Shown: positions 3,001 to 50,923, counted from the stretch's first letter. The stretch is DNA of 64,000 nucleotides from Dipteris shenzhenensis (GCA_047967505.1 CM106538.1); one strand, 5' to 3'. A program made the numbers and translations. The notes: generated by a model from the letters alone, not told the origin.

Positions 3001-3590
3001 AGTATCGCTATATAGCGACACTGATATACAAATTTATAGCGACGTTTTTACAGAGATTTTTTTTAAAAAAAAGGCCTTAAAAGTTAGTTTTTTCCAATGA
3101 CAAAATTTTTTAAATTTTCATACATGTTTGAGCTCATAGAGAATTAAAAAATGAGAGCATGTACATCAAGCCTTTGAAGCTCATATATTCATGTCCAAGT
3201 TTGAGATGAGAAAAATCAAATAAGAGCATTTACATCAACTGTTTCATCTTGATCCAAGTCTAAGGTGCCAACAAGTACATCTCCAGCTCTATACCAAGTT
3301 GATCTCCTATATCATCATCGTACTCTAGCATCGTACGTTCACCTAAAAGTATTTGATCATCTTCTTCAATAAAGCTTAAGTGTGGTGATTCTTGATGATT
3401 GTTAACACTTATTTCATTAATTTTCGACTTGTCAATGTACAAATTCATTTTTACATATACTTTTGGACTAGTTTTCAGATAAAATTTAAGAAAAACCCAA
3501 TCTTCAAAGCACATATAAAAACATAAAAACAAGCATTTTTTTATATATTTTTTAAGGACATGAAACTAAAATTATAAAATTTAACGCAGC

Positions 3591-3803
3591 CTACATAAGT
3601 TACATGAAAAAATAAGATTCAGTTGTTGTAAACTCTCTTAATATTTAATGGTGTTAATAAACACCTTCAAAAGTTAAGCCTGAGATTTTCAAGACTACAT
3701 AAGTTACAACGAAAAATAAGATTCGGTTGTTGTAAACTCTCTTAATATTTAATGGTGTTAATAAACACCTTCAAAAGTTAAGCCTGAGATTTTCAAGACT
3801 ACA
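3591..3803. repeat. Tandem duplication of ~105 bp near the left end of the giant element
   Basis: CTACATAAGTTACA...GAGATTTTCAAGA occurs twice in tandem. Confidence 0.85.
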
Positions 3804-3831
3804 GCCATTCAATTTGATGAATTTTCTATTT

Positions 3832-4266
3832 TCAAGTCCTTAGCCTAAATTCAACCCATTCAAGAGCTGAGCTCATCTCTTCCTCATCGAAGTAGTTAAA
3901 ATTATAGAAGAGAAGTAAGGATTGATGAATTTTCTCCTGCATAACACTTTGTTTGTTCTGAATGGCTTGCGCTTCCTCGGGGGAAAATCTTCCATAACGA
4001 GCCACACGCGAAGATATCTCACTTTGAAAGTCTATCAACTCTCTCCTATATGACTGCAATTTATCTATTTCAGTAGTAGCCATACTTATTTTTCTTTCCT
4101 CTTCCTTCTCTAAGCCCTTCTGACAAGCAAAGTCATCCTTCTCGTACTAGGTTAATGGAGCTGGATTTTGCTTTCTCTCCTCTCTCTTTCCTTGGTTCTT
4201 GGCAATCCATTCTTTGAGGCTGCTAATGGCTTGCTCGACAGAATCGATTACCTTAAAAAGATCCAT
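3832..4266 (-). pseudogene. Small ~144-aa helical/charged ORF in the giant element with one in-frame stop; function unknown
   Basis: MDLFKVIDSVEQAISSLKEW... (ATG 4266) and MATTEIDKLQ... (4083-3832) share a frame, separated by a TAG at 4147-4149. Confidence 0.45.
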
Positions 4267-4269
4267 AAT

Positions 4270-4710
4270 GGCTGCAAGATGAAAGGAGTATGCTTGAGAA
4301 GAGGAGGTAAGGTTGCGGGCAAGATAGAAGGAGCAAGCTTGAGGAGAGGAGTAAGGTAAGAAGAGTAAAGTGGAAGAAGTGTGGAGAGGAGTAAGGTAAG
4401 AAGAGTAAAGTGGAAGAAGTTTTTGCTGCGGGTGAGATATAGAAGACGAACGAGGTGAGGAATGTAACAAGAGTGAGGAAAGATATAGAAGACGAACGAG
4501 GTGAGGAAGATAACGAGAGTGAGGAAGGTAAGTAGAGGAGGTAAGGCAAGATGAAAGGAGTATGCTTGAGAAGAGGAGGCAAGGCTGCGGGCAAGATGGA
4601 AGGAGCAAGCTTGAGGAGAGGAAGGAGCAAGCTTGAGGAGAGGAGTAAGGTAAGAAGAGCAAAGTGGAAGAAGTGTCTGCTGCGGGTGAGATATAGAAGA
4701 TGAACGACTA
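4270..4710. repeat. GA-rich degenerate tandem repeats
   Basis: Recurring GGAGAGGAGTAAGGTAAGAAGAG, GGAGCAAGCTTGAGGAGAGG and GATATAGAAGACGAACGA units. Confidence 0.8.
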
Positions 4711-5284
4711 CTAGGGAATTTATAGAACTACAGATGCAAGACCGTAATGCGAGATGACTAGATGCAAGATCGTAATGCGAGACATTATAAAATAAAATGA
4801 TGGGATGCAAGACCGTAATGGGAGACATTTGAGACATATAAGATAGTGATAGTACATTCAAATCTATAAAATAAAATGATGGAACACAAGAATGATATAA
4901 TTAATAGAATCTCATCATGAGATATTCTTTTAATATTTAATATAAGTTAGTAATTATTAGAATCTCATCATGAGATATTCTTTTAATATAATATAAGTTA
5001 GACTTGCTGTACATAATAAATGATAGATTTTGAGTACATTGAAATCTATAAAATAAAGTGATGGAACATAAGAATGATATAATTATTAGATTCTCATCAT
5101 AAGATATTTATTGTACATAATAAATTAGACTTTCAAAAAAGTAAAACCTAATGTATTGTAATAAATAAATATCATAAAATATCCTAATGTATTGCAACAT
5201 TTAACATAAGTTTTAAAAACACTATCATTAATCAATACAAACAAGATAAAAATCTTCAAGGACTCATGTTTCTTTCTACATGTT

Positions 5285-8200
5285 TTACAACTGAATAGAC
5301 TCTGATGAGTCCTCTTGAGGCTGTGATTCTCTAAGAGTACATTGAGTCTCTACTTGTGTGGATGATGTACATTGAGATTCTACTTCTGGTGCAATTGGGA
5401 TAGACTTAATCTCTTCCTCGTTTACAAGATGTGATGTTGTAGATGCACATTGAGTCTCCACTTCTTGTGTAGGAAGAATGCATTGAGTCTCTAATTCAAG
5501 TGTAGACTGTAATGCTTCTACTTGAGGCTGTGATACAGAAGGAGACTGAATTGTCTCTTCTTTTTCTTTGGCTCCCTCAGGTTCTTCATTGAGTCCATCA
5601 TGTTGTTTCCCAATGATAGCAGTTAGATAGTGAACAGTCTTAGCCACAAAATCTTGTAGCTCGAGCTTGGTATATGCTTCTATGGAGACATGTTCAAAAA
5701 TTTCATTGAGATACAACATGAAGTTGTAGGCAATTCTCCACCCACTACTAAACATGTCTTTTTGCTCCACTGTGAGGCGTGTCTGGAAATTTGGTTGGTC
5801 TTGATGCTCCCTAATTTTCATAATCGCAGAAACTAACTTGTTTGCAGACCTGTCCATCATGACATATGACAAAGTGAATTTGTGTAGTAAATAGTAAGAT
5901 GCATGTACATAATGATATGATAAAAGAACACTTACCTGAACACCCTGTGAAAGCCTGTAATTGAGTTGACAAACCAACAATGGTTGTCATCAAGGTCCCA
6001 TACTATCAGGCTCCAATGTGAACTACATCACCAATAAAGAGCGATAAGATTTATCACAATATTAAGTATTAATTGACACAATATTATAAATAAGAGAGTA
6101 AAAGAAAGATTGAGACCATACTTACTTCTCATAGTATGGCATAAAGACAAGTAGTATGCCATCCAAGTCTAAAGGTTGTAGAATTGAACAAACATCATCT
6201 ACTGTCTTCTTGGTATCACTAAGTACAGCTGAAAGAATCGAGCATACAGACGTGATTCTGTACTGATCTAGGAAAATGAGATATAACCGTACTGCAGCAA
6301 TAAATAAACAAATGTTAGAAGCAGATTGAATCAAATGATTGAAGTATCAAGTCAAGAGATGTTCATATCAAACCTGAGGATGGCCATCATGACTTTGTCA
6401 TTAGCCTCTTTCAAAGGGTCGCAGAGGATTGTAACTTCCTCGCTACCAAAAGTCAAAACACGAGGTTGCTTGCTAATGATGACCTTAACCTCAGAAGAGC
6501 TCCCCATTTCGTCCAATACAGCGGTTACATCAGGACAACTTATGGGCGTAGCAACCAATGTTTCCTCTGGATGCTCCACCACGTTATCAATAAATGCCTT
6601 AATGATAGATGACATAAATGCATATAGATGCAAGTCTGTATATGTGGACAATGAGGTTTCACCGCCTCTCAAATTAAAAATTTGAGCAAGGAGCAAAAAG
6701 CAGTTATATCCAACTCTCCACCCACAATTGTGGTCATCATTCTGCTTCGCTGCAGGGCATGTTACATACTCTATTTGATCTTCCAAGTCACCCTCCATTT
6801 GCATAAGTGCATCTATAGCACTTACCAACTTTCGAGCAGATCTACACATCAAAATAGAAAACATAAATGAATGTGCGCATTGCATAGGATGCATCTCATT
6901 GACATAATTATGACACAAGTAGGTTATACTTACTCTGACACACTGCCATGGATAGATGCTATTGAATTGACAAAGAAGCATTGCTTGGCTAAGATGTCCA
7001 CAATTACCAAGCTCCAATGCAAGCTGCATTATCAATTAAGAATAATTATTATTTGATATAATCCTCCACAATGTAAGAGATAAGCTAGGTAGGGATTGAT
7101 ACTCACTCCTCGTGATATGCAGTAAAGATAACTCACGCCGCAGTCAAATCAATAGGTTGCAACCACTTAAAAACATCATCTATGGTCTTCTGCTTATTAC
7201 TAAGTACACTAGAAATAAGAGGATCGACCATATATGCACATCTTTGTATATATAGCGGAAGCTGTTGTAAAACCATACTGCAATAAAAAGAAAAGAATAT
7301 TAGTTCATTTGATCCAATGGAAATACAAAAGCATAAAGTCAGTAAAAAGTTTGTGTCAAACCTGAGGATGGCTATTATAACCTTGTCATTGACCTCTTTC
7401 TTGAAGTTTATGAGGATTGAAATGTCCTCTTCATCGAATATAAAAGTAAGAGGTTGTTCTCGAACTTGAAACCTAACTTGAAATGACTTCTCCATTTGCT
7501 GCAATGTATGATTATTTTCTAGAGTCATCCGACGGATAGCCAGTGCAGCTTTGCTTTCTTGAGATGAGCTTTCTATATTCTCTGCTCCAACTATGTCCTC
7601 CTCATCCTCCTCCTCTCCCTTCTCCTATAAAAGGATAAAATAATTATGAGATTCAAAATTTTAAATTAATTATAAATTTAAAAAGACCTTTAAATGAATA
7701 AAGAAAATTAAACATAAGTCTTCATACCTCTACATATCTTCGTGGTCTTTTTATGTAACCTTCAGAGGCAAGGTCAGTGTCATATCCATCTTCTTCTGCT
7801 TCCTTGCTATCGCTGGTGTCCTCACTATTATATCCAGAGCTTTGATCATTTTCATCATCTTTCTTGCTCTCATCATACATGATCATCTCTATGTCATCCT
7901 CTTCATGTGAGCTTCATGTGAGATCGGACCTTTCTTATCAAACTTTATTGTGAGAGAAGCCACGGTATCAAGGTATTCCAAGCAAGCAGGACTCTCAATA
8001 ATATTTACATTGTGTCATTTTCTGATAAGAGCTTCAAACAGATGTCCCATTCGGCACAATGTGACTTCCCATCTGGACGGTAGCAAAAATTCCATCATAC
8101 TAATTAAAAGATCAGCACTTTTTACTGGCCTTTCATAGTGATTTGCGTTGCGATGGAGGGGACTTGGAGCTTCATGCTCTTCCAGCAGTAGTTGCAATCT

Positions 8201-11200
8201 CTTTGCATTCCCTCTTATATTGTTTTGTAAGGAGTGATCATTGTAAGGGCTCTTCATGCACAAGAAAAAGGTTTCTAGACTCTGTATCTTGAGACCGCAT
8301 TCTCTCTTGTCCCTTTTTCTTGAGTATATCCCATTGTAAATCTTGAGCTCATTGCCATATTGTTTTTTTAGAGTAGCAGACATTTGTTCCTTGTCATCTT
8401 TATCAGCAAATATGACTATATTACATTGTCCCACTCTACCAATGGTGGTATGTAATATTCTGTCAAGGAGTTGACGGATGTCATCCGGTGATATTTCATA
8501 GACAAAGAAAAGCTGAGGTCTCTCCCAAGCAGTGTCATCGGACAAAAAATCACTCAATGAAACTCCATTGCACTCAACACTCTTTCCAGACTCTGAAATG
8601 ATTTCATGTATGAAATAAAAGCCCTTGTTCAAAGTTTTTTCTTTTTTGAGAGTGTGGTTATTGATGACTTTTTGTGCATATGCATACACATTTTCCGGAA
8701 TGTCACTTCTCATAGAGGGAGTAATTTCAGATCCATCATCTTCTACCTTCACCCATTTATGCGCCCAAGCCTTCTGTTTAGCTGACGATAAAGCTGATGC
8801 CATCTGCCTCACAATGTTATGATCAATTTTACATTGGCTAATTGGAATATTTTTTTCTCCCAATAAATATTCAATTGCACTCTTAACTGCATCACGCTTG
8901 ACCTGTTGGATGATGCAATCGTCCATGCAATGATCTTTATCCTTTTTGCCAAAAAACCATTCTTTGGACATTAATTTCTCTGCAGCAAGACTTGCGTATT
9001 TGTCTGGTAGGTTTCTTAAAGGCCTCCACATCCGAGCTGTCATCTCTTTTTTCTCAATCTTCTTTGCCTTCTCTTTAATCAATGATGGAGCCTCATATGT
9101 AACATCTCCTTTCTCACATGCAAGACACACGTCTTTGATCTGATGAAAAACTTCATCACTACAAAAAAGTATGCTTGTGTAGTCTTGATACCTATCCCTT
9201 ATTGTCTTGAAGCTTGTAATCACCTCTACTCTTTCCTGCTTTCCCCTTGGTACAATGGCACTCAAGCATGTGTAGAAGTCAACAAGATTATCCGCTTCCA
9301 CTTTAGTTGCAGTTCTTTTGAGAGTGGTCAAAGGAGAATTAAAATTTTTCCATATGGTCCTAGCTTTGAGTAACATCTCTGAAGTGGAGGTGATTTTTCG
9401 TAGTGCATAAATGTCATGATTAACTCTTTCCGACTCAATCAAATATTTTTTCTCGTTCTTGAAGATACAGATGGATGCAGAATAGTAGTGAAATTGAGGC
9501 ACACTCGCGAAGGTTTGATAAGTAATTTCTCCTTTCTTGTATGCATCTCTAGAGCGCTCATTACAAGCATAGGCATAGTGCTGACCATCTATTGCCTCAA
9601 ATGTACAATGAGCTAAGAAATTTCTCTTGGCATCCCTTATATGTCGTTCTGGATCATTCACTGAATTCTGTCCTTCTTGAAGTGAGGGAACTTGTTTTTC
9701 GAGAAACTTAGTGAATTGTATCTCAAAATCTATAGGCTGAGAGAAATTGATGGATTGACTATAATCTCCCATGACTGGCCAAAATGTTCTTGGACGGAGT
9801 ACCAAATTAGAAACAACTGGTTTTTTTCCATCAATCAAAGCCTGAAAAATCTTTTCAGCATAGGCTATATCTAAGGTCCTGCTGTTGGTGAAGACACTTG
9901 CTTTGACCACTGTTGAAGCATGTATAACTTGAGTCTTCTGGCCCCATATATATCCTGGATCCTCATCTGTCACAGCCTCGAGGAACTTAGTGAATTGCAT
10001 CTCAAAATCTATAGGCTGAGAGAAATTGATGGATTGACTATAATCTCCCATGACTGGCCCAAATGTTCTTGGATGGAGTACCAAATTAGAAACAACTGGT
10101 TTTTTTCCATCAATCAAAGCCTGAAAAATCTTTTCAGCATAGGCTGTATCTAAGGTCCTGCTGTTGGTGAAGACATTTGCTTTGACCACTGTTGAAGCAT
10201 GTATAACTTGAGTATTCAGGCCCCATATATATCCTGGATCCTCATCTGTCACAGCCTCATTCAAGCAAAGATTTAGGTTCTTCATTGATAACATTTCTGC
10301 TTCCAAATCTGACTCCATTTCAAGACCCTCCGCATCCTCTTCATGTTCTTCCTCTTCTCTTCTTTGCCCTTTCTTTGTATATGAACGACCTCTTTTTCCA
10401 GTTATAGGACTTGGAACTGTAGCTCGTGAAGTACTTGCCTTTTGCATTTAACGTCGAGGTTTATTTTTTAGGGGCTCAATGTGAACTGCTTTAGATCGCC
10501 CTACTTCTTCTTCTATTGCCTCAACTTCAGGTATACTTAAGGGCTTCACTTGTTCTGTTATTCCATCAACTTCATGAGTTACACCAGTAATACCATGAAC
10601 AAGAGATGTGTGTGCATGTCCTGTCTTATCTGATGCATGTCGTGTCTCACTCAATTCAATTTCTGTCTGAGATGCATGTGCATGTCTGGTCTCCACCAAT
10701 TCAATTCTTGTCTCAGATGTAGATCCCTTGTAAGCATCCATGTGTACAAGACCCTCATCCATTGCTACAATGTGTTCTGTCTCATCCACTCCACTTCCTC
10801 TCTCATTTGTATTACCATGAACCAGGTCTACATGGCGTGTCTCATCACTTCCTTTCTCATGTGTGGATTCTTGCACCTTAGGTCCCTCCAATGAAGTTGA
10901 ACCTTGTTGGATGACACCCTGAAAGTATTCAAGGATAATCTTTGACTGCATTTTTCTTGCTTCCTCAATGGGAAATTCCTCCCACACATGTTGAAGGATC
11001 TCCAATGTAGGAACCAATTCAGGCAATCTAGGTGCTTTTGGTGGCGGCATCACAAAGTGCATTGCATCTTTCTTAGAAAGAAGAAACGATCTGTTGCTCA
11101 TTCTTGACTTTGTGTAAATCATCATTGTACTGCTGTCTTTTTCAATTTTTATTCCTACTAAGGTGCCCCCTTGAATCAAATTGCTCTTTGAGAAAGATAC

Positions 11201-11395
11201 ATTTGATGCACACTCATCTTTCTCCAACTCTCTCTTTGTCATCACTAGAATGAGATTTCCTTTACTTAAGACCAAGAACCATGCTTTCTTTGTTGTGTCA
11301 ACAACTGTCCAGTTTGTAAAGTCCTTTGGGGCATAAATTCTTCCATTGTATTTCAGTGTCATACCATTGACAAATGCTGTAGCCTCAAGATCCAT
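5285..11395 (-). pseudogene. Large cargo gene of the giant element: N-terminal region, ParB/DGQH-like region, acidic linker, two tandem Ulp1/C48-like protease domains (probably one spliced gene, now disrupted)
   Basis: AG acceptor just before ATG at 11395. ORFs 10448-11410 and 8015-10447 share a frame with one TAA between them. FEAIDGQHY motif. Spliced exons give LHWSLVIVD...VNS...QNDDHNCGW (His 7017-7019, Cys 6724-6726) and MPYYENSHWSLIVWD...VNS...QKDMFSSGW (His 6016-6018, Ser 5744-5746). Joining of the two halves through acidic exons (7530-7950) is inferred. Confidence 0.7.
9699..10258. repeat. In-frame 279-bp (93-aa) tandem duplication in the cargo ORF
   Basis: EAVTDEDPGYIWG...QFTKFLE occurs twice, offset 279 bp. 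Confidence 0.95.
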
Positions 11396-12449
11396 CCTGT
11401 ATTCAAGCACAACACAAATTTTAAGTACTTTGACAAACTACAATTACTTTGAAAAATCAAAAGTACAATGAGTCCCATTAATACACCTCAAGTTTTTATT
11501 CTTCCCAATCATATAAGTATCAATTTCATGCTTTGGGAATAGCCTAAAAGGCTTTACAACGCTTAGAGCATAAATGCTTTGGGAATAGCCTAAAAGGCTT
11601 TACAAGGCTTAGAGCATAAATGTGAAAAAAAATAAGGATTTACAATGATCTCTGAATACAAATTTGAAGTCTGTCATATATAAGTGCAAAATGCTCTGTC
11701 AACTCCCGCAACTGATATAAGTGTAAAATGCTCTGTCAACTTCCACAACTGTAATCTGTCATGTCCACTGATACAACTTTCAATCATCTTGAAAGTTTAA
11801 AAACCTTAATCGTTGCTTAAATGGTAGGGTTGTTGTGACTGTGAAACCGAATGTGAACGAATGGACTGACTCCGATTAGGAACTAGTCGGGAAATTTTGA
11901 GCATGGCTTTGATTGGTTTTTTTGGAGTTCTCTCCTCTAAGGACAAACTAATCTATGCTAATCTAGACTACACCAACCGTCGAAGCGAAGAAAAGCAAGA
12001 AATAATTTCTTTTCCATTGTTCTTTTTAATATCCTTAGGTTGCGAATTAAAAGCAAAAAATAATCTATTTTCCATTATTCTTTTTAATACACTAAGGTTG
12101 TGAGTTTAAAAAAGATAAAATTTGTATTTTATCTTTTTTAAACTCACACCCCTTTCTCTCTCTCTCCCCCCCTTCTCTCCCCCCCCTTCTCTCTCGCTGC
12201 CGCCCCCATCCTCCCACCCCACCTTCCCCATTCTCACTCCCACGCCCACGTCCATTCTTTCACCTTCCCCATTCCCATTCCCTCTCCCACTCCCATCCTC
12301 CCACCCCTTTCTCTCTCTCTCCCCCCCCATTCTCTCTCGCTGCCATGGCAGCGGCCCCCCCTTCTCTCTCTCTCCCTTCCCCTTCTCGTTTTAAAAAAGA
12401 TAAAATTTATATTTTCAAAAACTAATTTACTTACAACTCATAAGAATTG

Positions 12450-13610
12450 AACATTCACATTAATAAGAAGTTAAAATCTTAATAAATTTGAATTTAAATA
12501 ATAAAAACTATAAAGTAGTTTAACTTAAAGTTTATGAAAAAATAACGTAAAATAAAGAAAACAAGACTTAAAATTAAAAATTTAATATTTACCTACATTC
12601 ACATTAATAAGAAGTTAAAATCTTAATAAATTTGAATTTAAATAATAAAAACTATAAAGTAGTTTAACTTAAAGTTTATGAAAAAACAACGTAAAATAAA
12701 GAAAACAAGACTTAAAATTAAAAATTTAATATTTACCTAGAAGAATATATTAATTCTCCCTAAAAAGAAATAAATTAAAGTAATAATAACGAATGTAAGT
12801 TAAACTACTTTTAAAATTTTAATTTAAAATGTAATAAAATTAAAATTATACTTTTTATATTCCAAAACAAAATGCATTATAGTCTAAATTAAACTAGTAA
12901 ATTAAAAATGAAAGTGAAACTCATTTTAAATTCAAAAACAAAGAAAAATTTAAAATTCAAGTTTCTACAAGTTTTGCTTTTAGCATACATTTGTCTTTTC
13001 ACATCCACGCATTTGTCTTTTGAAACACAAGGTTGTCTTTTATCACAATTTTCACATCCACGCGTTTGTCTTTTGAAACACAAGGTTGTCTTTTATCACA
13101 ATTTTCAAGTTTTCACACATTTATCTTTTCAAACACAAGGATTCATAGTTTAAAAAAAGGCGAGAAATTTGAAATTCTAGTTTCCACACGTTTCTCTTTT
13201 CAAACACCAAGGTTTATAGTTTTGTTTGTTTAAGTTTCGACTAAATCACACACCAATCTCCTCTAATATGCCTCATTGATCGTAGCTCCCAAATTCTTCC
13301 ATCAAAACATCTCTCCTTTATCTCTTCTTGACCGTCGCCCACTCATTTTTTCTCCTCATTGGTAAGATTTTTTATCTCGATCGTACTTTCTCTTGTGCCC
13401 TTCCTCTCTGAATTTTCATCAAACACCAAGGTTTATAGTTTTGTTTGTTTAAGTTTCGAATAAATCACATACCAATCTCCTCTCATATGCCTCATTGATC
13501 GTAGCTCCTTTATCTTGTCTCGATCGTCGCCCACTCATTTCTCCTCTTCATTGGTAAGATTTTCTATCTCGATCGTACTTTCTCGTGTCCTCCTCTCTAA
13601 ATTTTCATCT
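12450..13610. repeat. AT-rich region with local tandem duplications (~145 bp at 12450-12740; ~220 bp at 13200-13610)
   Basis: ACATTCACATTAATAAGAAG... twice; CAAACACCAAGGTTTATAGTTTTG... twice. Confidence 0.8.
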
Positions 13611-13669
13611 CTCTCACTCTTCTCTCTCTCTCTTTCCTCTCCGCTCTAGTCTACGTTTCCTCTCATCTT

Positions 13670-15555
13670 AGTCTACTCTCTCCCCTCCTCTTCATTTCCC
13701 CTCTCTCTCTCTCTCTCTCCCTTTCTCCTCACCTTTTCCCTCTCTCTCACTTGCGCTCCCCACTCTCTCTCACTTGCCATGACCTCCCCCCCTCCCCTCT
13801 CTCTCTCTCCCCCTCTCTCCCTCTCGCTGCCGTGGCAGCGGCCCCCCCTCTCTCTCTCTCCCCCCTCTCTCTCTCTCTCTCTCCCCCCCTCCCTCTCTTT
13901 CGCTACCGTGGCAGCGGCCCCTCCTCCTCTCTCTCCTCCCCTCCCCTCTCTCTTGCTCTCGCATCTCCCCCCTTCTCTCTCTCCCCCCCCTCGTCTCTCG
14001 CTGCCGCGACAGCGGCCCCCCTCTCTCTCTCTCCCCTCCCCTCCCTCTCTCCCCCCTCTCTCTCGCTGCCCCCCCTTATCTCTCTCCCCCCTCCTCTCTC
14101 GCTGCTGCGGCAGTGGCCCCCCCTCTCTCTTCCCTCTCCCCACCCCTTCCCTCTCCCCCCCCTCCCCCTCTCTCGTTGCCGCGGCAGCGGCTCCCCCCTC
14201 TCTCTCTCCCCTCCCCTCCCCTCCCTCCCTCTCCCCCCTCTCTCTCTCTCCCTCCCCTCTCTCTCGCTGCCCCCCCTTCTCTCTCTCCCCCCCTCCCTCT
14301 CTCGCTGCCGCGGCAGCGGTAGCGGCTCCCCCCTCTCTCTCTCCCCTCCCCTCCCCTCCCCTCCCTCTCCCCCCTCTCTCTCTCTCCCTCCCCTCTCTCT
14401 CGCTGCCCCCGCCCCCCCTTCCCTCTCCCCCCCTCCCCCTCTCTCGCTGCCGCGGTAGCGACAGCGGCCCCCCCCTTCTCTCTCTCCCCCTCCCCTCTCT
14501 CTCGCTGCCCCCGCCCCCCCTTCCCTCTTCCCCCTCCCCTCTCTCGCTGCCGCGGCAGTGGCAGCGACCTCCCCCCTTCTCTCTCTCTCCCCCTCCCCTC
14601 TCTCCGCTGCCCCTGCCCCCCCCCTTCCCTCTCCCCCCCTCCCCCTCTCTCGCTGCTGCGGTAGCGGCAGCGGCCCCCCTTCTCTCTCTCCCTCCCTCTC
14701 TCTCGCTGCCCCGCCCCCCCTTCCCTCTCCCCCCTCCCCCTCTCTCGCTACCGCGGCAGCGGCAGCGGCCCCCCCTTCTCTCTCTCCCCCTCCCCTCCCT
14801 CCCTCTCCCCCCTCTCTCTCGCCGCCCCCCCTTCTCTCTCCCCCCCTCTCTCTCACTGCCCCCCTTCTCTCTCCCCCCCCTCCCTCTCCCCTCCCCTCTC
14901 CCTCCCCTCCCTCCCCCCCTCTCTGCTGCCGTGGCAGCGGCCTCCCCCTCCCTCTCTCTCTCCCCCCCCTCGCGGCTTCCCCCTCTCTGCGGCCCCCCCC
15001 TTCTCTCTCTCCCCCTCCCCTCTCTCTCGTTGCCCCGCCCCCCCCTTCCCTCTCCCCCCCTCCCCCTCTCTCGCTGCCGCGGCAGCGGCAGCGGCCCCCC
15101 CTTCTCTCTCTCTCCCTCCCCTCTCTCTCGCTGCCCCCGCCCCCCCTGTCCTCTCTGCCCCCTCCCCCTCTCTCACTGCTGCAGCAGCGGCAGCGGCCCC
15201 CCTTCTCTCTCTCCCTCCCCCTCCCCTCCCTCCCTCCTCTCTCTCGCCGCCCCCCTTCTCTCTCCCCCCCCCTCTCTCTCGCCGCCCCCCCTTCTTCTCT
15301 CCCCCCCTCCCTCTCCCCTCCCCTCTCCCTCCCCTCCCTCCCCCCTCTCCGCTGCCGCGGCAGCGGCCTCCCCCTCCCCTCTCTCTCTCCCCCCTCGCGG
15401 CTTCCCACCTCTCTCCCCTCTCTTCCCCCCTCCCCTTCTCTCCCCCCTCCCTTTCTCTCCCCTCTCTTTCCCCCCCTTCTCTCCTCTCTCTCCCTCTCTC
15501 TTTCTCTCTCTCTTATATTCTCTCTCTAAAAATCTTTCCTTCACTTTTCTCTCTC
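13670..15555. repeat. Polypyrimidine (CT/C) tract with interspersed CGCTGCCGCGGCAGCG palindromes
   Basis: Almost pure C/T on the + strand, punctuated by repeated full or partial copies of the 16-bp palindrome (e.g. ~14303, ~15072). A short related patch lies at 12145-12390. Confidence 0.95.
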
Positions 15556-15589
15556 TATAATAAAATTTCAAAGAATACAAATTTTAAAA

Positions 15590-15745
15590 AAAGTACCTGG
15601 AAAAAAGTTGAAATCGATGCTTGTGCTTGCTTGTGCTTGCTTTTGCTCTTCCTCCTCTTTTTGCTTCTCCTCTTGCTCTTCCTTGTTGAAATGAGAGAAA
15701 CAATGAGAGAAGGAGAGTATATATAAGAAAAACTAGGGTTTTAAG
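15590..15745 (-). promoter_or_regulatory. Putative promoter and 5'UTR exon of the minus-strand cargo gene
   Basis: On the minus strand: AAACCCTAG telo-box (~15734-15742), TATATATA box (~15718-15725), GA-rich leader, then donor CCAG|GTAC at 15596. A candidate acceptor lies at 11397, directly before the ATG. Confidence 0.45.
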
Positions 15746-15819
15746 TGCTTCTCTCTCATTGGTCCTTTTATAACATTATCTCTCTCCCATTGGCCTCTCT
15801 ATTAGATTATCTTCTCTCT

Positions 15820-16765
15820 CTCCCACACACTCCCATCCTCCCACCCCATTCCCACTCCCACTCCCACCCCCATCCTCCCACCCCACCTCCCCCATTCTCA
15901 CTCCCACGCCCACACCCCATTCTTTCACCTTCCCCATCCCCACTCCCTCTCCCACTCCCATCCTCCCACCCCACCCCTCCCACTCCCACCCTCACCCCAC
16001 CCCCACCTCCCCCATTCCCACTCCCACTCCATTCTCCCACCCACTCCCATCCTCCCACCTACACCTCTCACTCCCACTCCCATCCTCCCACCCCACCCCT
16101 CCCCCCCATTCCCATCCCACTCCCACTCTCCCACCCTTATCCTCCCACCTCACCCCTCCCACTCCCATCCTCCCACTCCCTCTCCCACTCCCACTCCCAC
16201 TCCCACTCCCATTTCCCACCCCCCACCTCCCCCATTCCCACTCCCACTCCCATTTTCCCACCCCCCCCCCCGCCTCCCCCACTCCCACTCCCTCCCCCAT
16301 CCTCCCACCCCACCCCTCCCACTTCCACCCCCACCTCCCCCATTCCCACTCCCATCCTCCCACCTCACCCCTCCCACTTCCACCCCCACCTCCCCCATTC
16401 CCACTCCCTCTCCCACTCCCATCCTCCCACTCCCACTCCCCACCCCTCCACACTCCCACTCCCATCCTCCCACCCTCACCCCACCCCCACCTTCCCCATT
16501 CCCACTCCCTCTCCCACTCCCACTCCCATTCTCCCACCCCCACCCCCACCTCCCCCATTCCCACTCCCTCTCCCAGTCCCACTCCCATTCTCCCACCCCC
16601 ACCCCCACCTCCCCCATTCCCACTCCCACTCCCATCCTCCCACCCCCACCCCCACCGCCCCCATTCCCACTCCCTCTCCCACTCTCCCTTTCTCCCACTA
16701 CCACCCTCCCACACTCCCTTTCTCCACTTTCCCACTCTCCCTTTCTCCCACTACCACCCTCCCAA
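15820..16765 (-). repeat. (CCCACT/CCCATT/CCCACC)n array; G-rich (GGGAGT/GGGGGT)n on the minus strand
   Basis: About 950 bp of degenerate hexamers with G3-G5 runs on the minus strand. Confidence 0.95.
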
Positions 16766-16844
16766 CTATCAATTCCACTATTACTTATGAATTCTAATTA
16801 AAACTATTACTTAAATAAATGATATTACTTGAAAACACTCATAG

Positions 16845-17870
16845 GATTTAAGGTTTAGGATTTCGTGGTTTGGGTTTAGGATTTGGGGTTTGGTGAGTTA
16901 GGGTTTAGGGTTCAATGTTTGAGGGTTAGGGTTTGGGGGTTAGGGTTTAGAGTTTGGTGGTTTAGGGTTTAGGGTTTGGGGGTTGGGGTTTAGGATTTAG
17001 GGTTTAGGGTTTAGGGGTTAGGGTTTAGGGTTTAGGGTTTGGGGTTAGGGTTTAGGGTTTGGGAGTTAGAGTTTAAGGTTTAGGGTTTAGGGTTTGGGAT
17101 TTAGGGTTTGGGGTTTAGGGTTTAGGGTTTGGGAGTTAGGGTTTAGGGTTCACGGTTTAGGGTTTGGGAGATAGGGTTTAGGGTTTAGGGTTTAGGAGTT
17201 AGGGTTTAGGGTTTAGGGTTTAGGGTTTAGGGTTTAGGGGTTAGGGTTTAGGGTTTGGGAGTTAGAGTTTAAGGTTTAGGGATTAGGGTTTGGGGTTTAG
17301 GGTTTAGGGTTTGGGAGTTAGGGTTTAGGGTTTAGGATTTAGGGTTTAAGAGTTAGGATTTAGGGTTTGGGGGTTAGGGTTTAGAGTTTAGGGTTTGGGG
17401 GTTAGGGTTAAGGGTTTAGGGTTTAGGGTTTAGGGTTTAGGAGTGAGGGTTTAGAGTTTAGGGTTTAGGGGTTAGGGCTAAGGGTTTAGGGTTTAGGGTT
17501 TAGGAGTTAGGTTTTAGGGTTTAGGGTTTAGGGTTTGGGAGTTAGGGTTTAGGGTTTGGGGTTTGGGAGTTAGGGTTTAGGGTTTAGGGTTTGGGGGTTA
17601 GGGTTTAGGGTTTAGGGTTTAGGGTGTGGGAGTTAGGGTTTAGGGTTTAGGAGTTAGGGTTTAGGGTTTGGGGTTTAGGGTTTAGGGTTTGGGAGTTAGG
17701 GTTTGGGGTTTGGGGGTTAGGATTTAGGGTTTAGGGTTTGGGGGTTAGGGTTTAGGGTTTAGGGTTTAGGGTTTGGGAGTTAGGGTTTAGGGTTTAGGGT
17801 TTAGGGTTGTTATTGGTTAGGGTTTAGGGTTGTTTTGGTTTACGGTTTAGGGTTTAGGGTTTAGGGTTGT
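16845..17870 (+). repeat. Interstitial telomeric repeat array (TTTAGGG)n with GGGAGTTAGGG variants
   Basis: About 1 kb of plant-type TTTAGGG heptamers lying between the TIRs of the giant element. Confidence 0.97.
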
Positions 17871-18023
17871 TATTGGTTTACTGTTGTTATTGGTTAGTGT
17901 CTAATTAAATTTTCAAACACGTTCTGGATTTTTAAATCATTAATAAAGTAGATTATTGAGAAGAGACTAATGTTCTTTATAATGGTTGTTACAGCTTGTT
18001 TGTAAAGGAAACTCACAAAGGAG

Positions 18024-21000
18024 ATGGCTACAAAATTTATTCCGGGGATGGAGGTGATTTTATGTTGTAAAAGAGAGGTAGTTGCATTTGCTACAATCCA
18101 TGAAAGTGATCCAAATTCTATTTGTCACTTTAGAAGACTTGGCGAAGATAAGGTGGCGGTTATCGTATCAAGGATTCTTAGTGCACATGTTGAGCTAAAG
18201 CATAAGTGTGGGGATATTGAAATCCTTGGAGATGTTATGCCCTATAATACTTCCAACAAAGCATTTATTGCATGGGACAGAGATGAGACTTATCCAACAC
18301 ATGTCATCAGGAATACAAAGTGCATATCTTTGGATTTTAGAGTGGGAGATATTTGACAAATGTTATCATTTACAAATAAGTATGTAGCAGAAGGTCAAGT
18401 CTTGGGATTTGAACAAGTTGAACACTGGACATTTGCGCAGATGAGAATTCAAAAAGTTACTGATGATGGTATGGATGATAACTCAATGTCATTGGATGGT
18501 CCCTACTATGAGGTAGGTAAGGATTTGAGATGGAGCATGCAATTTTTAAAGATTGGAAAGACTCGGCATGTTGTTTTTAATGATAAACATAATGTATACT
18601 ACAACATCAAAGAATTGAAAGAATATGCCAATGTACCAAGCTCTATTCCTTCAGAGATGGATGATTCCAATGCACTCAACTCTAGCACTGATGTCTTATC
18701 AGAAGTCGATGAGTTCATTGGTACCGAGAAAGAAAAATATTTCACAAGTGATGCCTTATCCGGGGTGGATGAGTTCATGCACATTGAGAACTTGGGCAAA
18801 GATGTCAAAAGTGTTATATCTTCAAGCATGGATGGCTTCATGGATACTGATAAAGTTCTTGGAGTCAAAGCAGGTAACTATGGAATTATGGAAATCATGC
18901 ACGATAGTATAATGAGTGATGTTCTCTCTGGAGTAGAGGAGTTTCAAGACTATGGAGTTATGCAATCCATAGAAAGTGCATCAATGAGCGATGTTCTCTC
19001 AGGAATAGATGAGTTTGAAGATCATTCTGGACACTCTATCACCACTGACTATGGAGTTATGAAATCCATAGAAAGTGCATCAATGAGTGATGTTCTCTCA
19101 GGAATAGATGAGTTTGAAGATCATTCGGGACACTCTAATGCCATTGTGACAAGTGGTTCTATGATTGTATCAAAAGTAGGGATGAGGTCAACAAAGGACC
19201 ATTCGGTGTTTGACTTTGATTGTGAACTTGTAAATGTTACAAATGGTTTGACGAATGTATCAAAAGCAAGGATGACATCAACAAAGGAATATTCAGTATT
19301 TGACTGTCAAAGTGATAAGATCAAGGATGCAACATCTCATGAAAACAACATGACAAATAAATCTTACAAGGAGAACTACACAAATCCAAATTAGAATGGA
19401 CAGAAGGTCCCAAAACGGACATACAGATGCATGAAAAGACAACGAGTGCAGGCAGATCCAAAAAAGCAACCAAAAAGAATAAGAGTAATGAATGAAGATG
19501 TTATGCTAAAAGCAATGCGATCTACATGCTGTAAGCATACATGTATGCGATCCATTAACTTACATGACATCAAGGGTTGTAGAGAACATGTCTGGCAAAG
19601 GAAAGGAAGCAGAAGAAATGAATACCTACTCACGAGATTTTCTTGCTTTCTTGTAAATGATAAGAGAAGGCGAAGTTCAGGACATCAAATAAGGCCTCTT
19701 ATAAATGGAAAAAGTATATGCAATAATGCATATCGCATTATTACAGGATTATCACATAACACATATTGGAATTTGGCTAATAAAGCAAAGTATGGAGTTA
19801 AATTTAACATTCATGGAAACATAGGAAGGCCCAAAACAAGAGCCTCAACGGTTGCGGCAACAGCAATTTTGAAAGATCACATTTATGAAAATGCTTTACC
19901 GCAACCCCACCTATCAGAAATGCATCTTCCGATAGGTTTGACCAAAAAAGAAGTATTTAACTCTATTGGAGAAACACAGAGGCAAAGAGGGCATGCATCG
20001 GCATCTTTTCATACTTTGTATACTCTTTGGAAAAAAAGATTTGGACATGTTAAAATCCCAAAGAGGCAAAAAATGTCAAAGTGCAACGACTGTGATGATC
20101 TAAAGCGAGCACTTGAGAGTGCAACATCTCTAGAACAAAAAGAAGCTTACAAAAGAAAGAGAGAATTTCATCATGGACTTGTTCGACATTCTAGAATAAA
20201 ATATGCATTTTGGAAGGAGCAAGCTATTTCTCACCCAAATGAGTACATGTGCATTATTGTAGATGGTATGGATCAAAATACAACAACATTACCTCGATTC
20301 GTTAACACTCCACCTAAGCTACAAGACAAATACTTTTTAAAGACACATCTATGTGGAGTGTTAGTGCATGGATTTAAGTTTTTTGCAGACATATGGATTG
20401 ATTCCTTGCATCTACACGATAGCAATCAAGTTGTAACATCCGTTATGAAGGCAATTCACAATGTACATGCAGAAAAAGGTCACCTACCAGCAACTTTGAG
20501 AATACAAGCAGACAATTGCTGATGAGAGAATAAGAATGTACTCTTCTTTGCATTTTGCTCAATGCTAATCGCTCATAGAATCTTCAATGAGATTGAAGTT
20601 GGGTTTTTGTTGGTTGGGCACACACATGAGGATATCGATCAGGTATTTAGCACAGTTTCAAGAGAACTAAAACACAAGGACATGGAGACAATGGATGACT
20701 TGATAAGAAAATGTGGGAGGCAAGTTGGTGGCCGTAAGGAAGGAACAATATGCTCAATGGTTGAGAGGATGTATGATTGGAAGAGCTTTATTCTACCTTT
20801 CATACAAAAAGGTGGTGATGCCCTGATTGGTCATAGCGCTCCACACTATTTTTGATTTTTCTTAAAGGATGAAAAACCAGTGATGCAATGGCAACACTAT
20901 TCTCTTGATACAAAATGGGAACCGAAGAACCTTACTCTCTCTTAACTTCAATCCTGAGCAAAGAAATGCATCCAACATGGGCTCCTATGAAAGAATTCAG

Positions 21001-21730
21001 CGAGAAATCCAAAGGTGAAATAGAAGGCTTAAAAGCTTTTATTGCATACAAAGAGGAAATGCTCCGGAGATTTCCTGATTGGAAGCCCTCTTGGAAGGAA
21101 CACACTACTGTTGTAATTAGCAAGACCTACCAATTGATAAAGGACCTTGCAAAAATGCGAGAAGATGATATTAAGGCAGAACGGCCTTTATTTTGGCCAA
21201 ATGTTGGTAATGACTTGCGTCCAGCATGTGGTCTCTTTGAAAATGAGTTTGAATCGTTGCTCCCACGTCCATATTGTGGACCCAAGAAGAGAGAGTTTAT
21301 GCCACAAATAGACATAGATGTCCATTGTTTTGTTGCAGTTCGACCATCGGATGATGAACATGAGAACGTGAAGTTTTGGGTTGCGAAAGTAGTTGACGTG
21401 AGCATGGATGACCAGGGGAGAGCTACAACATTTACAGCGGTATGGTATGAGCCAAGGGGTAGGAAGGAGAACCAAGATAACAGTACATTGTATAGTAGTT
21501 GTTTGAAAAAGGAATGGATCCCAAACCATGAAGCAATTTCAAGACTTTCCACAGAGACAGTCATAGTATCCTAGAAATCAAGGTCAAAGAAAACAAAGAA
21601 GCACATGGGGTATGATGTAGAAGACAAAATAAAATTACCGCAACCAATTATTACGCACATTACAGAGTTCACAAAGATGCTCGCCCGGGAGGAAGTAGAA
21701 GGAGATAGTGCAAATGAAGAATGCCCATGA
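18024..21730 (+). pseudogene. Sola-like DDD (RNase H-fold) transposase, ~1230 aa reconstructed, with N-terminal TNP1/En-Spm-like modules
   Basis: ORFs 18024, 18360, 19431 and 20562 are one frame broken by stops, with one frameshift near 20915 and read-through to TGA at 21728-21730. Motifs KCNDC...HH, IIVDGMDQ, CGVLVHG, IQADNC**ENKN, VGHTHEDIDQVFS. AG acceptor at ~17994 upstream of the ATG. Confidence 0.8.
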
Positions 21731-24700
21731 TAACACCATTCAAATATCGAGAAAGAGTGAAGGTGGTGGTGGTTGTCAGATGAGAGTGAATGAAGATGGC
21801 ACCCAAGCGATAAGTGACGACAGAAAGGACATTCTGAACAAGAAAACGTTTGGATCGCTCATTTCTGTGATCATGATAGAAAAGGACATTCAAACAAGCA
21901 AATGTTTGGATCGCCCATTTGTACTAAACTCATTGTAAAGGAAAAATTAAATTATTGAAAAGGCCACAGGAGATCCTTTGTACAAAGACTCATCCAGAGC
22001 AATATTTGTTGTAAAACTTATGACATGATAATGTAAAATTACAAGCATAGCTATCGCTATTTTTTGGAGTACAAAAGAGGCTTCCATCATGTCTCATGTG
22101 TATATAAACCTTTTAATTTCTTGAATATTCAAGAGTGTTATAGTTTTCTGCATTGAAAGTAAAAAGAGTCTTACAGGTCTCTTATGTATACATTTTTAAA
22201 ATGTTGTGAATCCTCAATAGCATGGTTTTTCAAGGATTTAAACTAATAACTCGGATTTTTTATTTTAAGAATATGATTCTTATAAACAAGAAATACAAAT
22301 TTAGGATTTAATAGTAGTTTTTGCATTATTTGTACAACATTGTAGAGAGATATTTTAAAATGTCTTATGTGAAAATGATAGTGCCAGAAAGTACACTTTT
22401 GATTCTCGAATGACAGTTTCATAAAGAAAACTTTTCAGTTGGGAAGGATTTTAAGGAATAGTCCAAAAGTAGACATATGAGTCCAAAATTAATGAAATAA
22501 GTGTTTGTTGTCTTCTTCCTCAATATCGTGATCTCCATCCTCCTCCCGTGCGATTTCATTATGCGCATCTTCCTCTTGGCTCATATGGTGATCTACATCT
22601 TCTTCGCTAGATTCATCAATTGGATCCAGCATTGGTAGTGGCATCTCCATATCCACATCTCGATCTTCAAAAATTTTCTTACTTCGTGGTGCAACTTGGA
22701 TCACGTACCACCATCTTGGATCAGAACGAGATCCGGATGAAAAACCACCTATATTGAAGATGGGTGCCAAATGTCGTCAATTATATATATGAAATTATGC
22801 TCAAGTACATGTATCAATGGACTTTAAAAACGAAAGCTTCGACTAATTAAATCATTAGTATGCACCTGCTCACAGTGCTCGGGAAGAACAAAAGTATCAC
22901 TTTCATCGGTCCAATGTTTGGTGGAGTCTATTGCAAAGAGACCGCTACTATCTTTTCTCACTGTCGCATGGGGACCGTTGTAAGTAGTTCTAAACCATTT
23001 TACATCAAGAATGAAAATAGTAAATCGTCTGAAATCAATTTCATAGATGTCGCGTATGGTTCCATAATAATCCAACTATGAGGAGAGAAGATTGGTATCT
23101 GAAGCACTTGCTCGGCTATTTTGTGTGAAGTTAGCCATGACTCCACAATCATACGTGACTCTCTTTGAATCGATGCGTTCCACGCGAAAATGTCGTCCAT
23201 ATGACCATAATGCACTGTACTTTTTGTACTGTAAAAGAGCATCATTAAAACAATGAAGATGCATATATTTTATAGCATATATTGCCACAAATAATTACTT
23301 AATTACATCAAGAGGTAAGAAACTTACATGCATCATACATCCAGATGATAACTCTCGCTCGCGCTCGTTTATTGTCTCTCCATCACGTTCGGCTTTACGT
23401 AGAGCCAGTTGTAGCCAATCAAGTGACATGTGAGTAGGGAGAAGAGCCAGATCCTGTGGATATGGTTGTGATCGCCTGTACATTACTCTGAATATCGTCC
23501 TTGCATTTATTCTTTTTGCTTTGGCCACTTCATATCTCAATCCACTTTTGCATCTCAGGGCTATTGAGGATACAAAACTTATTGAATTTCTCCATTTGCT
23601 CTTCGCTCATCTTTCTTTCAATCCCTTTTCCTTGGGGAACCTCGCCAACGATGTGATCATCATCCTTGTTGTGCCAAGCTTGCAGCATATCAGGATCCGT
23701 GGATGCAAGAAACTCTGTGATATATACTAATGACTCTTGCACAAGCCATCCCTCTGCCATGCTTGCTTCCGGTCTTGCTCTTTGTCTTACAAACCCCTTT
23801 AAAGTTTTCATAAACCGCTCGAGAAAAAACATCCATCGATTATGAACGGTACCTGCTATAGCCACCTCATCAACTATGTGCACAAGCAAGTGGACTTGAG
23901 TTGTCATAATGCTCGAGGGAAAGTGCTTCTCAAGCAAGCATATGGCTTCGATGGATTCCACCCTAGCCTTCTCGATGCTCAATATAGAGATCTCTTTTTG
24001 AGATATCCACCTATTTCACATGTCCATGCATATGTAAGATATTTGAGATATCCACCTGTTTCACATGTCCATGAAGAAAATACATAATGCAATTTGATAG
24101 TAAGCATACCTCACAATACCACAGATCTTGAATATAGCATTTCTAACATCTTCTTGTAAGCACCCTTTTATTGTAATTGGGAGGATGAACTATCAAAGCA
24201 ACAATGAAGTCATGTCAACAATATAACATAATAATAATTACGCTAACGCATCACGATTATCGGTACACTAATTCTACTTAGAATACCTATAAGACCTTGT
24301 GCCAATCATGGGACTTGAGCCCACTAAGCTTATTGTCCTTTGAAAATGCTCCTTTCAAGCAACGCATGTACCCTGTCAGTGTTTGAAAAGAGGCAATATC
24401 TGCCTTGACCACTGCCTCCTCCCTCGTAGAGAGGATCCACGTTGCTTTCAGGAGGACAACTTTTCCCGAATCATGCACTTGGGGCCACAAACGAGACATC
24501 CTATTCATAGCACGCAAGTCTTCTCACACTCCTCTCGAGTCCTTGGAACCAACCAAGTGTGCCCAAATAGTAGCCCCCACATTCTTGAAGATATGCATGG
24601 GATCCAAGAGATGATTGATTTGTAACTGACCCCAATAAGGAAGCTCCTGAAAGATTGATAGCCTCTTCATACCAGGAGGAGGTTCCTCTCCATTCGCCCT

Positions 24701-42435: not shown

Positions 42436-43268
42436 AAAGTACAGTGCATTATGGTCATATGGACGACATTTGCGTGTGCTACGCATCGATTCAAAGAGAG
42501 TCACGTATGATTATGGAGTCATGGCTAACTTCACACAAGATAGCTGAGCAAGTGCTTTGGATACCAATCTTCTCTCCTCACACTTGGATTATTGTGAAAC
42601 CATATGCGAAATCTATGAAGCTGATTTCAGACGATTTAGTATTTTCATTCTTAATGTAAAATGGTTTAGAACTATTTACAATGGTCCCCATGCGATAGTG
42701 AGAAAAGATAGTAGCAGATTCTTTGCAATAAACTCCACCAAACATTGGACCAATGAAAGTAATACTTTTGTTCTTCCTGAGCACTATGAGCAGGTGCATA
42801 CTAATGATTTAATTAATTGAAGCTTTCGTTTTTAAAGATCCATTAATACATGTACTTAAGCATAATTTCATATATATAATTGACGACATCTGGCACCCAT
42901 CTTCAATATAGGTGGTTTTTCATCCGGATCGTTTTGATCCAAGATGGTGGTATGTGATCCAAGTTGCACCACGAAGTAAGCAAATTTTTGAAGATAAAGA
43001 TCATAATATGAGCCAAGAGAAAGATGCGCATAATGACATCACACGGGAGGAAGATGGAGATCACGATATTGAGGAAGAAGACAACGATCATCAAGAATCA
43101 CCACACTTTATTGAAGAAGATGATCAAGTACTTTTAGGTGAACGTACAATGCTAGAGTACGATGATGATCATATAGGAGATCAACTTGATATAGAGTTAG
43201 AGATAGACTTGTTTGGCACGTTAGACTTGGCTCAAGATGAAACAGTTGATGTAAATGCTCTTCATTGA
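37650..43268 (+). pseudogene. CACTA TnpD remnants (two tandem copies) lacking the Transposase_21 core exon
   Basis: The CHCTHC exon is joined at ~38003 and ~40881 directly to the LKASDW...LDPIHIFKNL segment. VHLLVH/WMFFL exon in both copies; the terminal acidic exon (42912-43268) only in the second. Confidence 0.88.
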
Positions 43269-50500: not shown

Positions 50501-50923
50501 GGAAATAGAAGATTCTCAATATTGTTTACTAGTTCATAACCAGGAAGTTTGCAAACTATGAAAAATGGGGCATTTCCTAGTTTGTCTTACAAAGAAAAAG
50601 AGGATTCTCTATATCATTTACTAGACTATAACTAGGAAGTGTGCAAACTAGGGAAAATGGAACATTTCCTAGTTAGACTATGTAGGGAATTGCTAATGAA
50701 TTTCACTATCTAGGAAAATTTTCCTATATGGTGAAATTCTCTAATGATTCCCTGCATTAACTTGCATAGGAAATTTTTTGATTGATTCCCTAGATAAGGT
50801 AACTAGGAAGTGTTCCATTTTCTTTAGTTTGCACTCTTACTAGTTATGTTCATTTCAAACTAGTAAATGATATAGAGAATCCTCTTCTTTTCCTATACAG
50901 AGAACATCTCAAAGTTCCTTGTG
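47524..50923. mobile_element. 3,400-bp non-autonomous TIR element with CACAA termini (CMC/CACTA-like)
   Basis: 13-bp perfect TIR CACAAGGAACTTT...AAAGTTCCTTGTG, many subterminal TAGGAA/TTCCTA motifs at both ends, absent at the equivalent site in copy A (493/494). No clean TSD. Confidence 0.85.

Follow-up and report, generated by a model that had tools for sequence, protein, structure and literature searches.

What is the 19-kb block of sequence that interrupts a CACTA (En/Spm) transposon copy in the land plant Dipteris shenzhenensis (GCA_047967505.1, CM106538.1), and did it arrive there as one mobile element? The stretch of DNA analysed here, referred to as the window, is 64,000 nucleotides long, and positions are counted from its first letter on the strand presented. 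The block is best read as a decayed giant cut-and-paste transposon, with a transposase of the DUF7869 family that is most likely a Sola-type three-aspartate (DDD) enzyme, which inserted whole at a TGTT target within the CACTA copy; a probability of about 0.6 is given to this reading. The coordinates of the features are collected in Table 1.

The transposon occupies positions 3404-22505 (19,102 bp) and is flanked by a 4-bp target-site duplication (TSD), TGTT, whose register could alternatively be TTGT with the length still being 4 bp. The arms of its terminal inverted repeats (TIRs) are paired at 25 of 26 positions (96% complementary), and the 21-mer terminus has exactly two occurrences in the window, one per end, where 0.01 would be expected. 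Just inside the TIRs is a 13-mer (TACTTTTGGACTA), present in inverted orientation at the two ends. Its core (TTTTGGACT) recurs as the inner portion of both TIRs, so that the outermost 70 nt of the two ends hold four copies in all; the 13-mer is a candidate transposase-binding motif. The flanking sequences are themselves CACTA copies, their open reading frames (ORFs) matching Pfam Transposase_21 (E-value 4e-43) and DUF4218 (E-value 3e-23). When the interrupted copy (A) is compared with its paralogue B, identity is 98.0% across 2,915 bp of left flank and 96.8% across 3,919 bp of right flank, with a single TGTT at the junction in B. The inverted copy C likewise has an empty site, with a single CGTT. 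Because of the TIRs, the TSD and these two empty paralogous sites, it is concluded that the 19.1 kb inserted as a single unit.

An original prediction, made for this DNA from the sequence alone, had proposed 26-bp TIRs matching at 25/26, a 4-bp TGTT duplication, matching subterminal 13-mers, an uninterrupted site in copy B at about 53831-53834 and the movement of everything between the ends as one unit. The inverted-repeat search recovered the same TIRs, the duplication and the 13-mers were found at both ends, the site in copy B was confirmed with that of copy C in addition, and the single-unit movement was borne out by the TIRs, the TSD and the two empty sites. Two details needed adjustment. 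The span had been given as 3400-22509 with exact ends; the ends hold, but the element proper stops at 22505, since 22506-22509 is the target-site duplication. Copy B had been taken as a duplicate, and it is indeed a paralogue, but as another CACTA copy and not a plain segmental duplicate.

Taken alone, the lack of the 19 kb in copies B and C would also be compatible with deletion, whereby no insertion took place and the sequence, ancestral to the CACTA family, was removed from both of them. This is very improbable given that the bounds are an exact 26-bp TIR with a 4-bp duplication, that B and C each have the 4 bp once, and that the element encodes its own transposase, unrelated to the Transposase_21 of CACTA. 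Terminus and self-comparison searches found no second copy of the element within the window. The 21-mer terminus gave three single, one-ended matches in prokaryote genomes, regarded as chance, and 0 matches in viral contigs. The window as a whole had 0 Rfam matches.

The gene on the plus strand matches Pfam DUF7869 (PF25273) on two ORF pieces, with E-values of 4.6e-11 and 8.7e-29 (43.1 and 100.9 bits, the curated cut-off being 26 bits). These cover positions 4-68 and 71-172 of the 192 in the profile, and the match runs on across an internal TGA TGA. It has 49 homologues, the best showing 35% identity over 99% of the query. The best homologues are uncharacterised metagenome proteins of 1,053-1,070 amino acids which share the N- and C-terminal extensions, and named relatives occur in a lancelet, sea urchin, oyster, crinoid and nemertean; tblastn gives single-frame matches over 19410-20924. 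An alignment of 44 sequences has D290 in every one of them and conserves D373, D413 and D415 at 90% or more; the third catalytic residue may be E412, D413 or D415. In an AlphaFold2 model (predicted local distance difference test, pLDDT, 80.5) the conserved aspartates take the canonical places of an RNase H-like fold, on beta1, where beta4 ends and shortly after beta5. The top Foldseek rows for this model are Mos1 (E-value 1.2e-3) and IstA (E-value about 1e-3), and VIA-align places it with retroviral integrase cores (Z 10.5-11.1), Mos1 (10.7), Metnase (10.4) and IstA (10.1). The predicted DDD transposase on this strand is thus upheld by Pfam, the conserved aspartates and the modelled fold, which together give good support for an RNase H-like DDD enzyme.

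No relative was found when the transposase alignment was searched against viral contigs. A description of DUF7869 as a transposase was not found in the literature within reach of the search, which left out the primary Sola papers and supplements. A TIR/TSD scan of 40 hand-picked longer loci out of 80 metagenome DUF7869 loci gave one clean candidate, with a 22-bp TIR and AAAA flanks (L018); the flanks were not counted as a TSD, their complexity being too low. The transposase also has a C-terminal domain (21200-21540, plus strand; ...CFVAVRP...FWVAKVVDV...AVWYEP...) which is conserved in the relatives of 1,055 amino acids. When it was searched as a profile against the PDB, the sole row was a BAH domain (EBS) without significance (E-value 0.54); the domain may be a chromatin reader or serve in targeting. 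In the oyster DUF7869 relative (P0028), an OTU cysteine-protease domain (PF02338) is found at the N-terminus, and proteases of deubiquitinase type may recur with DUF7869 transposases, here in the form of the Ulp1-like segments described below.

The transposase of the present copy is dead and non-autonomous. Its reading frame is broken by TGA at 18354, TAG at 19392, TGA TGA at 20520-20525 and TGA at 20853, together with a 1-bp frameshift near 20925-20935. The DDD enzyme of the original prediction stands, but these five stops and the frameshift had gone unremarked. At three of the five stops the homologues have W/G/T, R and R, and the CpG observed/expected ratio in the coding parts is 0.27-0.46; the stop pattern and the CpG depletion fit C-to-T decay of methylated DNA. 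Recoding of TGA, which accounts for four of the five in-frame stops, was considered and ruled out, as the homologues have R or W, CpG is depleted and TGA ends ORFs normally. The copy was probably already defective before moving and mobilised in trans, since the flanks differ by only 2-3%.

Sola elements are characterised by DDD transposases and 4-bp TSDs, in agreement with what had been stated for this locus, and have TIRs of 11-1124 bp (PMC10741241). They are mostly 2-9 kb in size with some above 15 kb, and are present in Physcomitrella and uncommon in flowering plants (PMC10741241), with SOLA elements also reported from the ferns Azolla and Ceratopteris (PMC6786969, PMC6890710). The element of D. 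shenzhenensis has the 4-bp TSD, a 26-bp TIR within this range and a DDD RNase H-like core, and it further shares with the superfamily the occurrence of some elements above 15 kb and of hosts among non-seed plants. It differs in its target, TGTT, which is not the AT-rich AWWT of Sola2 in Dictyostelium (PMC3627910), and at 19 kb it is far above the usual size. The transposase is most likely a Sola-type DDD enzyme, as judged from the TSD and the DDD triad.

An alternative, considered distinctly unlikely, is that the label Sola-like is mistaken and the DUF7869 transposase comes from a different superfamily, whether an undescribed one or some other with 4-bp TSDs. It draws on the likeness to Sola having been judged by TSD and triad and not by Sola1, Sola2 or Sola3 sequences, on a modelled fold nearest to integrase and mariner cores, and on the three Sola groups being mutually dissimilar. 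On the other hand, Pfam gave no match to rve (Ginger), Transposase_21 (CMC/Chapaev), piggyBac or hAT. The second and third catalytic residues are just 40 apart with no inserted domain, and such compact spacing speaks against enzymes of the hAT, CMC, MULE, P, Kolobok and Academ types. The kinds of animals in which named relatives occur are also those in which Sola was first described. The 4-bp TSD and D-D-D triad match the published definition of Sola (PMC10741241).

Opposite to the transposase, the minus strand has an 810-codon ORF which probably encodes a ParB/sulfiredoxin (Srx)-like domain, as judged from its modelled fold. A word-based search with the 810-amino-acid product found no homologue; HMMER, run in full on 1.84 billion representatives, gave 11 weak relatives, three of them with E-values below 1e-10. 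One relative of this cargo protein comes from the lycophyte Diphasiastrum. The protein and its 11 relatives have in common the block ...FL....[WF]EP[VI]DGQH...AC..., which by eye resembles the DGxHR box of ParB/sulfiredoxin-fold proteins. In an exhaustive VIA-align search with the model, the seven top rows all had the ParB/Srx fold, namely sulfiredoxin (Z 8.3), PadC (7.7), serine kinase (7.4), KorB (6.9), human sulfiredoxin (6.4), SbnI (6.4) and Atu1540 (6.0). The 329-codon ORF next to it, separated by a single stop codon, may encode the N-terminal portion of this protein. No family was recognised by Pfam or NCBIfam in the C-terminal half of the protein, nor in the whole protein and its long relatives (P0055, P0056, P0057 and P0064). 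A fungal DUF3723 assignment (ESM Atlas 0.93, low recognition) was dropped, having no Pfam support.

Also on the minus strand are the Ulp1-like segments, in which the motifs ...EVNDKVIIAILRF... and ...QNDDHNCGW... and, in the second copy, ...SSGW... were read by eye. ESM Atlas matches for 6352-7035 belonged in 26 of 30 cases to plant Peptidase_C48 clusters (score 0.91). By eye, both copies seem to lack a full His-Asp-Cys triad. The segments may act like, or derive from, an Ulp1 domain; the assignment remains a lead because Pfam and PDB sequence searches were negative.

Between the divergent genes there are several arrays, and the layout as originally predicted, with the transposase on the plus strand, the gene block on the minus strand, a tract of palindromes and arrays of C-rich and telomere-type repeats, was found to be present in full. 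Between a hairpin palindrome and its related arm (12096..12415) lies a short C-rich block with 86% likeness to 15812-15972. The units of the main palindrome array consist of a C/T-rich spacer and the palindrome (C)GCTGCCGCGGCAGC(G) of 14-16 bp; they align at 73% mean column identity, and the array is 74% G+C with a CpG observed/expected ratio of 0.66-0.89, above that of the coding parts. With at most two mismatches allowed, the palindrome has 17 matches, all within 12339-15364, against 0.02 expected. The array sits 2.4-3.9 kb upstream of the ParB-like ORF block and may contain the binding sites of the ParB-like protein. Some 150 bp separate the end of the telomere-type array (about 1 kb) from the transposase ATG, which lies downstream of it.

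Several points weigh against the favoured reading in what concerns this cargo. Only a single decayed copy is seen, so the membership of the cargo in the family depends on one element. The ParB-like model, built from a shallow alignment, is weak (mean pLDDT 53, core 60-85); its Z scores of 6-8 fall within the range that VIA itself calls common, and Foldseek gave nothing at an E-value of 0.001 or below. Sequence and profile searches of Pfam, NCBIfam and the PDB gave no ParB, DndB or Srx match, and Pfam and NCBIfam detected no DNA-modifying domain in the protein, unlike in the algal examples. The Ulp1 reading depends on language-model look-alikes and motifs read by eye, with no match to Pfam PF02902 at an E-value of 10 or below on six ORF pieces and none among PDB sequences. 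The palindrome array could be just a GC-rich minisatellite. Finally, tblastn against the 80 metagenome DUF7869 loci, most of them on short contigs, matched only the C-terminal and N-terminal parts of the transposase and neither the ParB-like nor the Ulp1-like proteins.

These points bear on whether the opposite-strand genes and arrays belong to the element at all. They may be private to this copy or lineage, as captured fragments and satellite growth with no role, in the manner of Pack-type cargo. This is unlikely but is the alternative to be taken most seriously, with one copy only in the 64-kb window and no counterpart of the ParB-like and Ulp1-like proteins in the 80 distant loci. In addition, tandem arrays expand readily, the in-frame 279-bp duplication is a recent local duplication, and giant Ectocarpus elements often hold fixed nested insertions and unrelated genes (PMC12477816). 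Yet the 810-codon ORF has stayed intact, while the transposase of similar length has acquired five stops and a frameshift; no internal TIR/TSD pair or retroelement signature was found around the cargo block by Pfam and inverted-repeat search; and opposite-strand ParB-like genes and adjoining inverted-repeat arrays recur in unrelated giant algal transposons.

Such algal elements provide the closest precedents for a transposon that carries these genes and arrays as its own. In Ectocarpus, Sola1-1_Ec32 is 21.5 kb long and encodes on the opposite strand a 1,104-amino-acid protein with ParB-like and DNA methyltransferase domains; in the giant families of this alga the transposase gene has often decayed to a pseudogene, and copies are believed to be mobilised in trans (PMC12477816). 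The element described here shares with Sola1-1_Ec32 the build of a TIR transposon of about 20 kb, the ParB-like gene on the opposite strand and the broken transposase typical of giant families. It differs in its land plant host, in having no methyltransferase domain detected by Pfam or NCBIfam, and in its Ulp1-like segments and palindrome and telomere arrays, which the accessible part of the Ectocarpus account does not mention. In the red alga Bostrychia moritziana, a Plavaka (CMC) transposon encodes PAG3, with an N-terminal ParB-like domain and a 2-oxoglutarate (2OG)-dependent oxygenase. The PAG3 gene adjoins tandem inverted-repeat arrays, and its authors propose that PAG3 binds and modifies its own transposon (bioRxiv 10.1101/2025.02.11.637652). 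The ParB-like accessory protein and the inverted-repeat arrays near its gene are shared, whereas the transposase of that element is Plavaka/CACTA-like and the 2OG oxygenase domain of PAG3 was not detected here. Ulp1/OTU cysteine proteases are known from Ginger1, Mutator-like elements and Helitrons (PMC2836005). A SUMO/ubiquitin-type protease module on a DNA transposon would be the common feature, but the segments here are on the opposite strand, unfused to the transposase and undetected by Pfam, with a seemingly incomplete catalytic triad.

The original prediction had not recognised the architecture from described plant families of transposable elements; precedents for it exist in Sola1-1_Ec32 and the red-algal Plavaka (PMC12477816; bioRxiv 10.1101/2025.02.11.637652). 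Features of the giant algal type are present, in the form of a ParB-like gene (by its modelled fold) opposite the transposase and an inverted-repeat array near that gene. A description of the whole combination, with a Sola-like transposase, a ParB-like protein and arrays, was not found in the literature, the primary Sola papers and supplements being outside the reach of the search. The element joins known algal themes in a land plant, without a detectable modifying domain and with a telomere array in addition.

As regards the setting, the window contains at least three full or partial copies of one CACTA family, 89-98% alike, and the best named relatives of the CACTA transposase are from the fern Adiantum nelumboides (59-61% identity). 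Together with the lycophyte relative of the cargo protein, they point to a seed-free vascular plant, probably a fern, as the host. CACTA parts are also tandemly repeated around 36.6-42.4 kb. Comparison of the copies places several nested insertions at base-pair level. One of these is a 3.4-kb AT-rich insertion in copy B (47522-50922), not present in copy A, which ends in inverted repeats of about 13-15 bp (CACAAGGAACTTT...) and has an extra AG on the left with no clean TSD readable. Another, of about 450 bp (54036-54482), resembles a miniature inverted-repeat transposable element and is found in copy B only; its 14-bp inverted ends (CCCGGGGGATTCAC) and 8-bp duplication (CACGTACC) would fit a hAT-type element. 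There is also a reverse-transcriptase RNase H domain on the minus strand at 30203-30877 (Pfam RT_RNaseH_2, E-value 3e-21) and, about 4 kb from it, a direct pair of 1,021-bp repeats which are 96% alike (34779-36825); together these are probably a long terminal repeat retrotransposon or its remnant. Dispersed and inverted repeats of about 60-300 bp with 76-97% identity, satellite-like and C-rich on the plus strand, occupy 59100-63100.

Table 1. Features of the giant transposon, its empty sites and the CACTA copies in the window
Feature	Position	Strand	Remark
TSD, left copy, TGTT	3400..3403	.	Read from sequence
TIR, left, 26 bp	3404..3429	+	Inner part TTTTCGACT is the subterminal motif with one mismatch
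Subterminal 13-mer, left copy	3458..3470	+	55-67 nt from left end
Subterminal 104-bp tandem repeat, 2 copies, 96% match	3591..3803	.	Tandem-repeat search
104-codon ORF, no family	3832..4146	-	Pfam; weak coiled-coil-like ZapB, E-value 0.019, below cut-off
Purine-rich short tandem repeats	4147..4900	-	Open in several frames, low complexity
Three ORF segments, resembling two tandem Ulp1/C48-like domains with introns	5285..7624	-	Lead only
Uninterrupted 810-codon ORF	8015..10447	-	Probable ParB/sulfiredoxin-like domain at residues ~170-340, motif F-E-A-I-D-G-Q-H
In-frame 279-bp tandem duplication, 2 copies, 97% match	9699..10258	-	Within ParB-like ORF
329-codon ORF, no family found	10448..11437	-	Same frame, one TAA from 810-codon ORF
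26-nt hairpin palindrome	12096-12151	.	Related 26-nt arm at 12390-12415
AT-rich 144-bp tandem repeat, ~2 copies	12451..12776	.	
Palindrome array, ~14 units of ~75-150 bp	13826..15364	.	One further unit at 12339
C-rich minisatellite (CACTCC / CCCCA-type)	15828..16764	.	G-rich on minus strand
Degenerate plant-type telomere array (TTTAGGG)n	16842..17868	+	~146 units, 63 perfect
Transposase pseudogene, ~1,183 codons	18024..21574	+	No evident intron; contains Pfam DUF7869
Catalytic D candidates	20262-20264; 20511-20513; 20631-20633 or 20637-20639	+	
Subterminal 13-mer, right inverted copy	22459..22471	-	35-47 nt from right end
TIR, right, 26 bp	22480..22505	-	Inverted-repeat search
TSD, right copy, TGTT	22506..22509	.	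Read from sequence
CACTA copy A	1-3403 + 22506-27292		Pfam Transposase_21, DUF4218
CACTA copy C (inverted)	37495-43486		Pfam Transposase_21, DUF4218
Empty site 2, single CGTT in copy C	43083..43086	-	Paralogue comparison
CACTA copy B	47027-59104		Pfam Transposase_21, DUF4218
Empty site 1, single TGTT in copy B	53831..53834	.	Reads ...GATTATTGTTGTCTTC... without break

A mechanism may be proposed in which the transposase would bind the TTTTGGACT motifs in and beside the TIRs and make 4-bp staggered cuts in the target, an intact relative supplying this activity in trans for the present copy. ParB proteins recognise 16-bp parS sites. The ParB-like domain of the opposite-strand protein would, by analogy, bind the approximately 15 central copies of the 16-bp palindrome CGCTGCCGCGGCAGCG, and the bound protein might mark the chromatin of the element or organise it, in line with a proposal made for the ParB-like accessory proteins of giant algal transposons. 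Further accessory or regulatory parts would be the Ulp1-like segments and the telomere array, the repeats of which may serve as a regulatory or chromatin-recruiting tract before the transposase gene. A bolder and unlikely extension, put forward as speculation, is that giant Sola-type transposons of land plants carry a self-recognition module, in which a ParB-like protein, encoded opposite the transposase, would load onto parS-like palindromes, and a telomere array beside the transposase promoter would recruit chromatin factors that bind telomere repeats. The element could thereby set its own chromatin state, or keep its two halves or the excised DNA from coming apart while it transposes.

The insertion is resolved to the base pair for a DUF7869 element and, together with the model, supports this family as DDD transposases that make 4-bp duplications. 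Giant DNA transposons carrying ParB-like accessory genes are a recent discovery, so far reported from brown, red and green algae only, and a case in a land plant would widen this range. As the candidate site array and the ParB-like gene lie within one element, binding of the protein to its own transposon is testable with one domain and one 16-bp palindrome. If the self-recognition module were true, a partition or condensation system of bacterial type would have been reused by a eukaryotic transposon.

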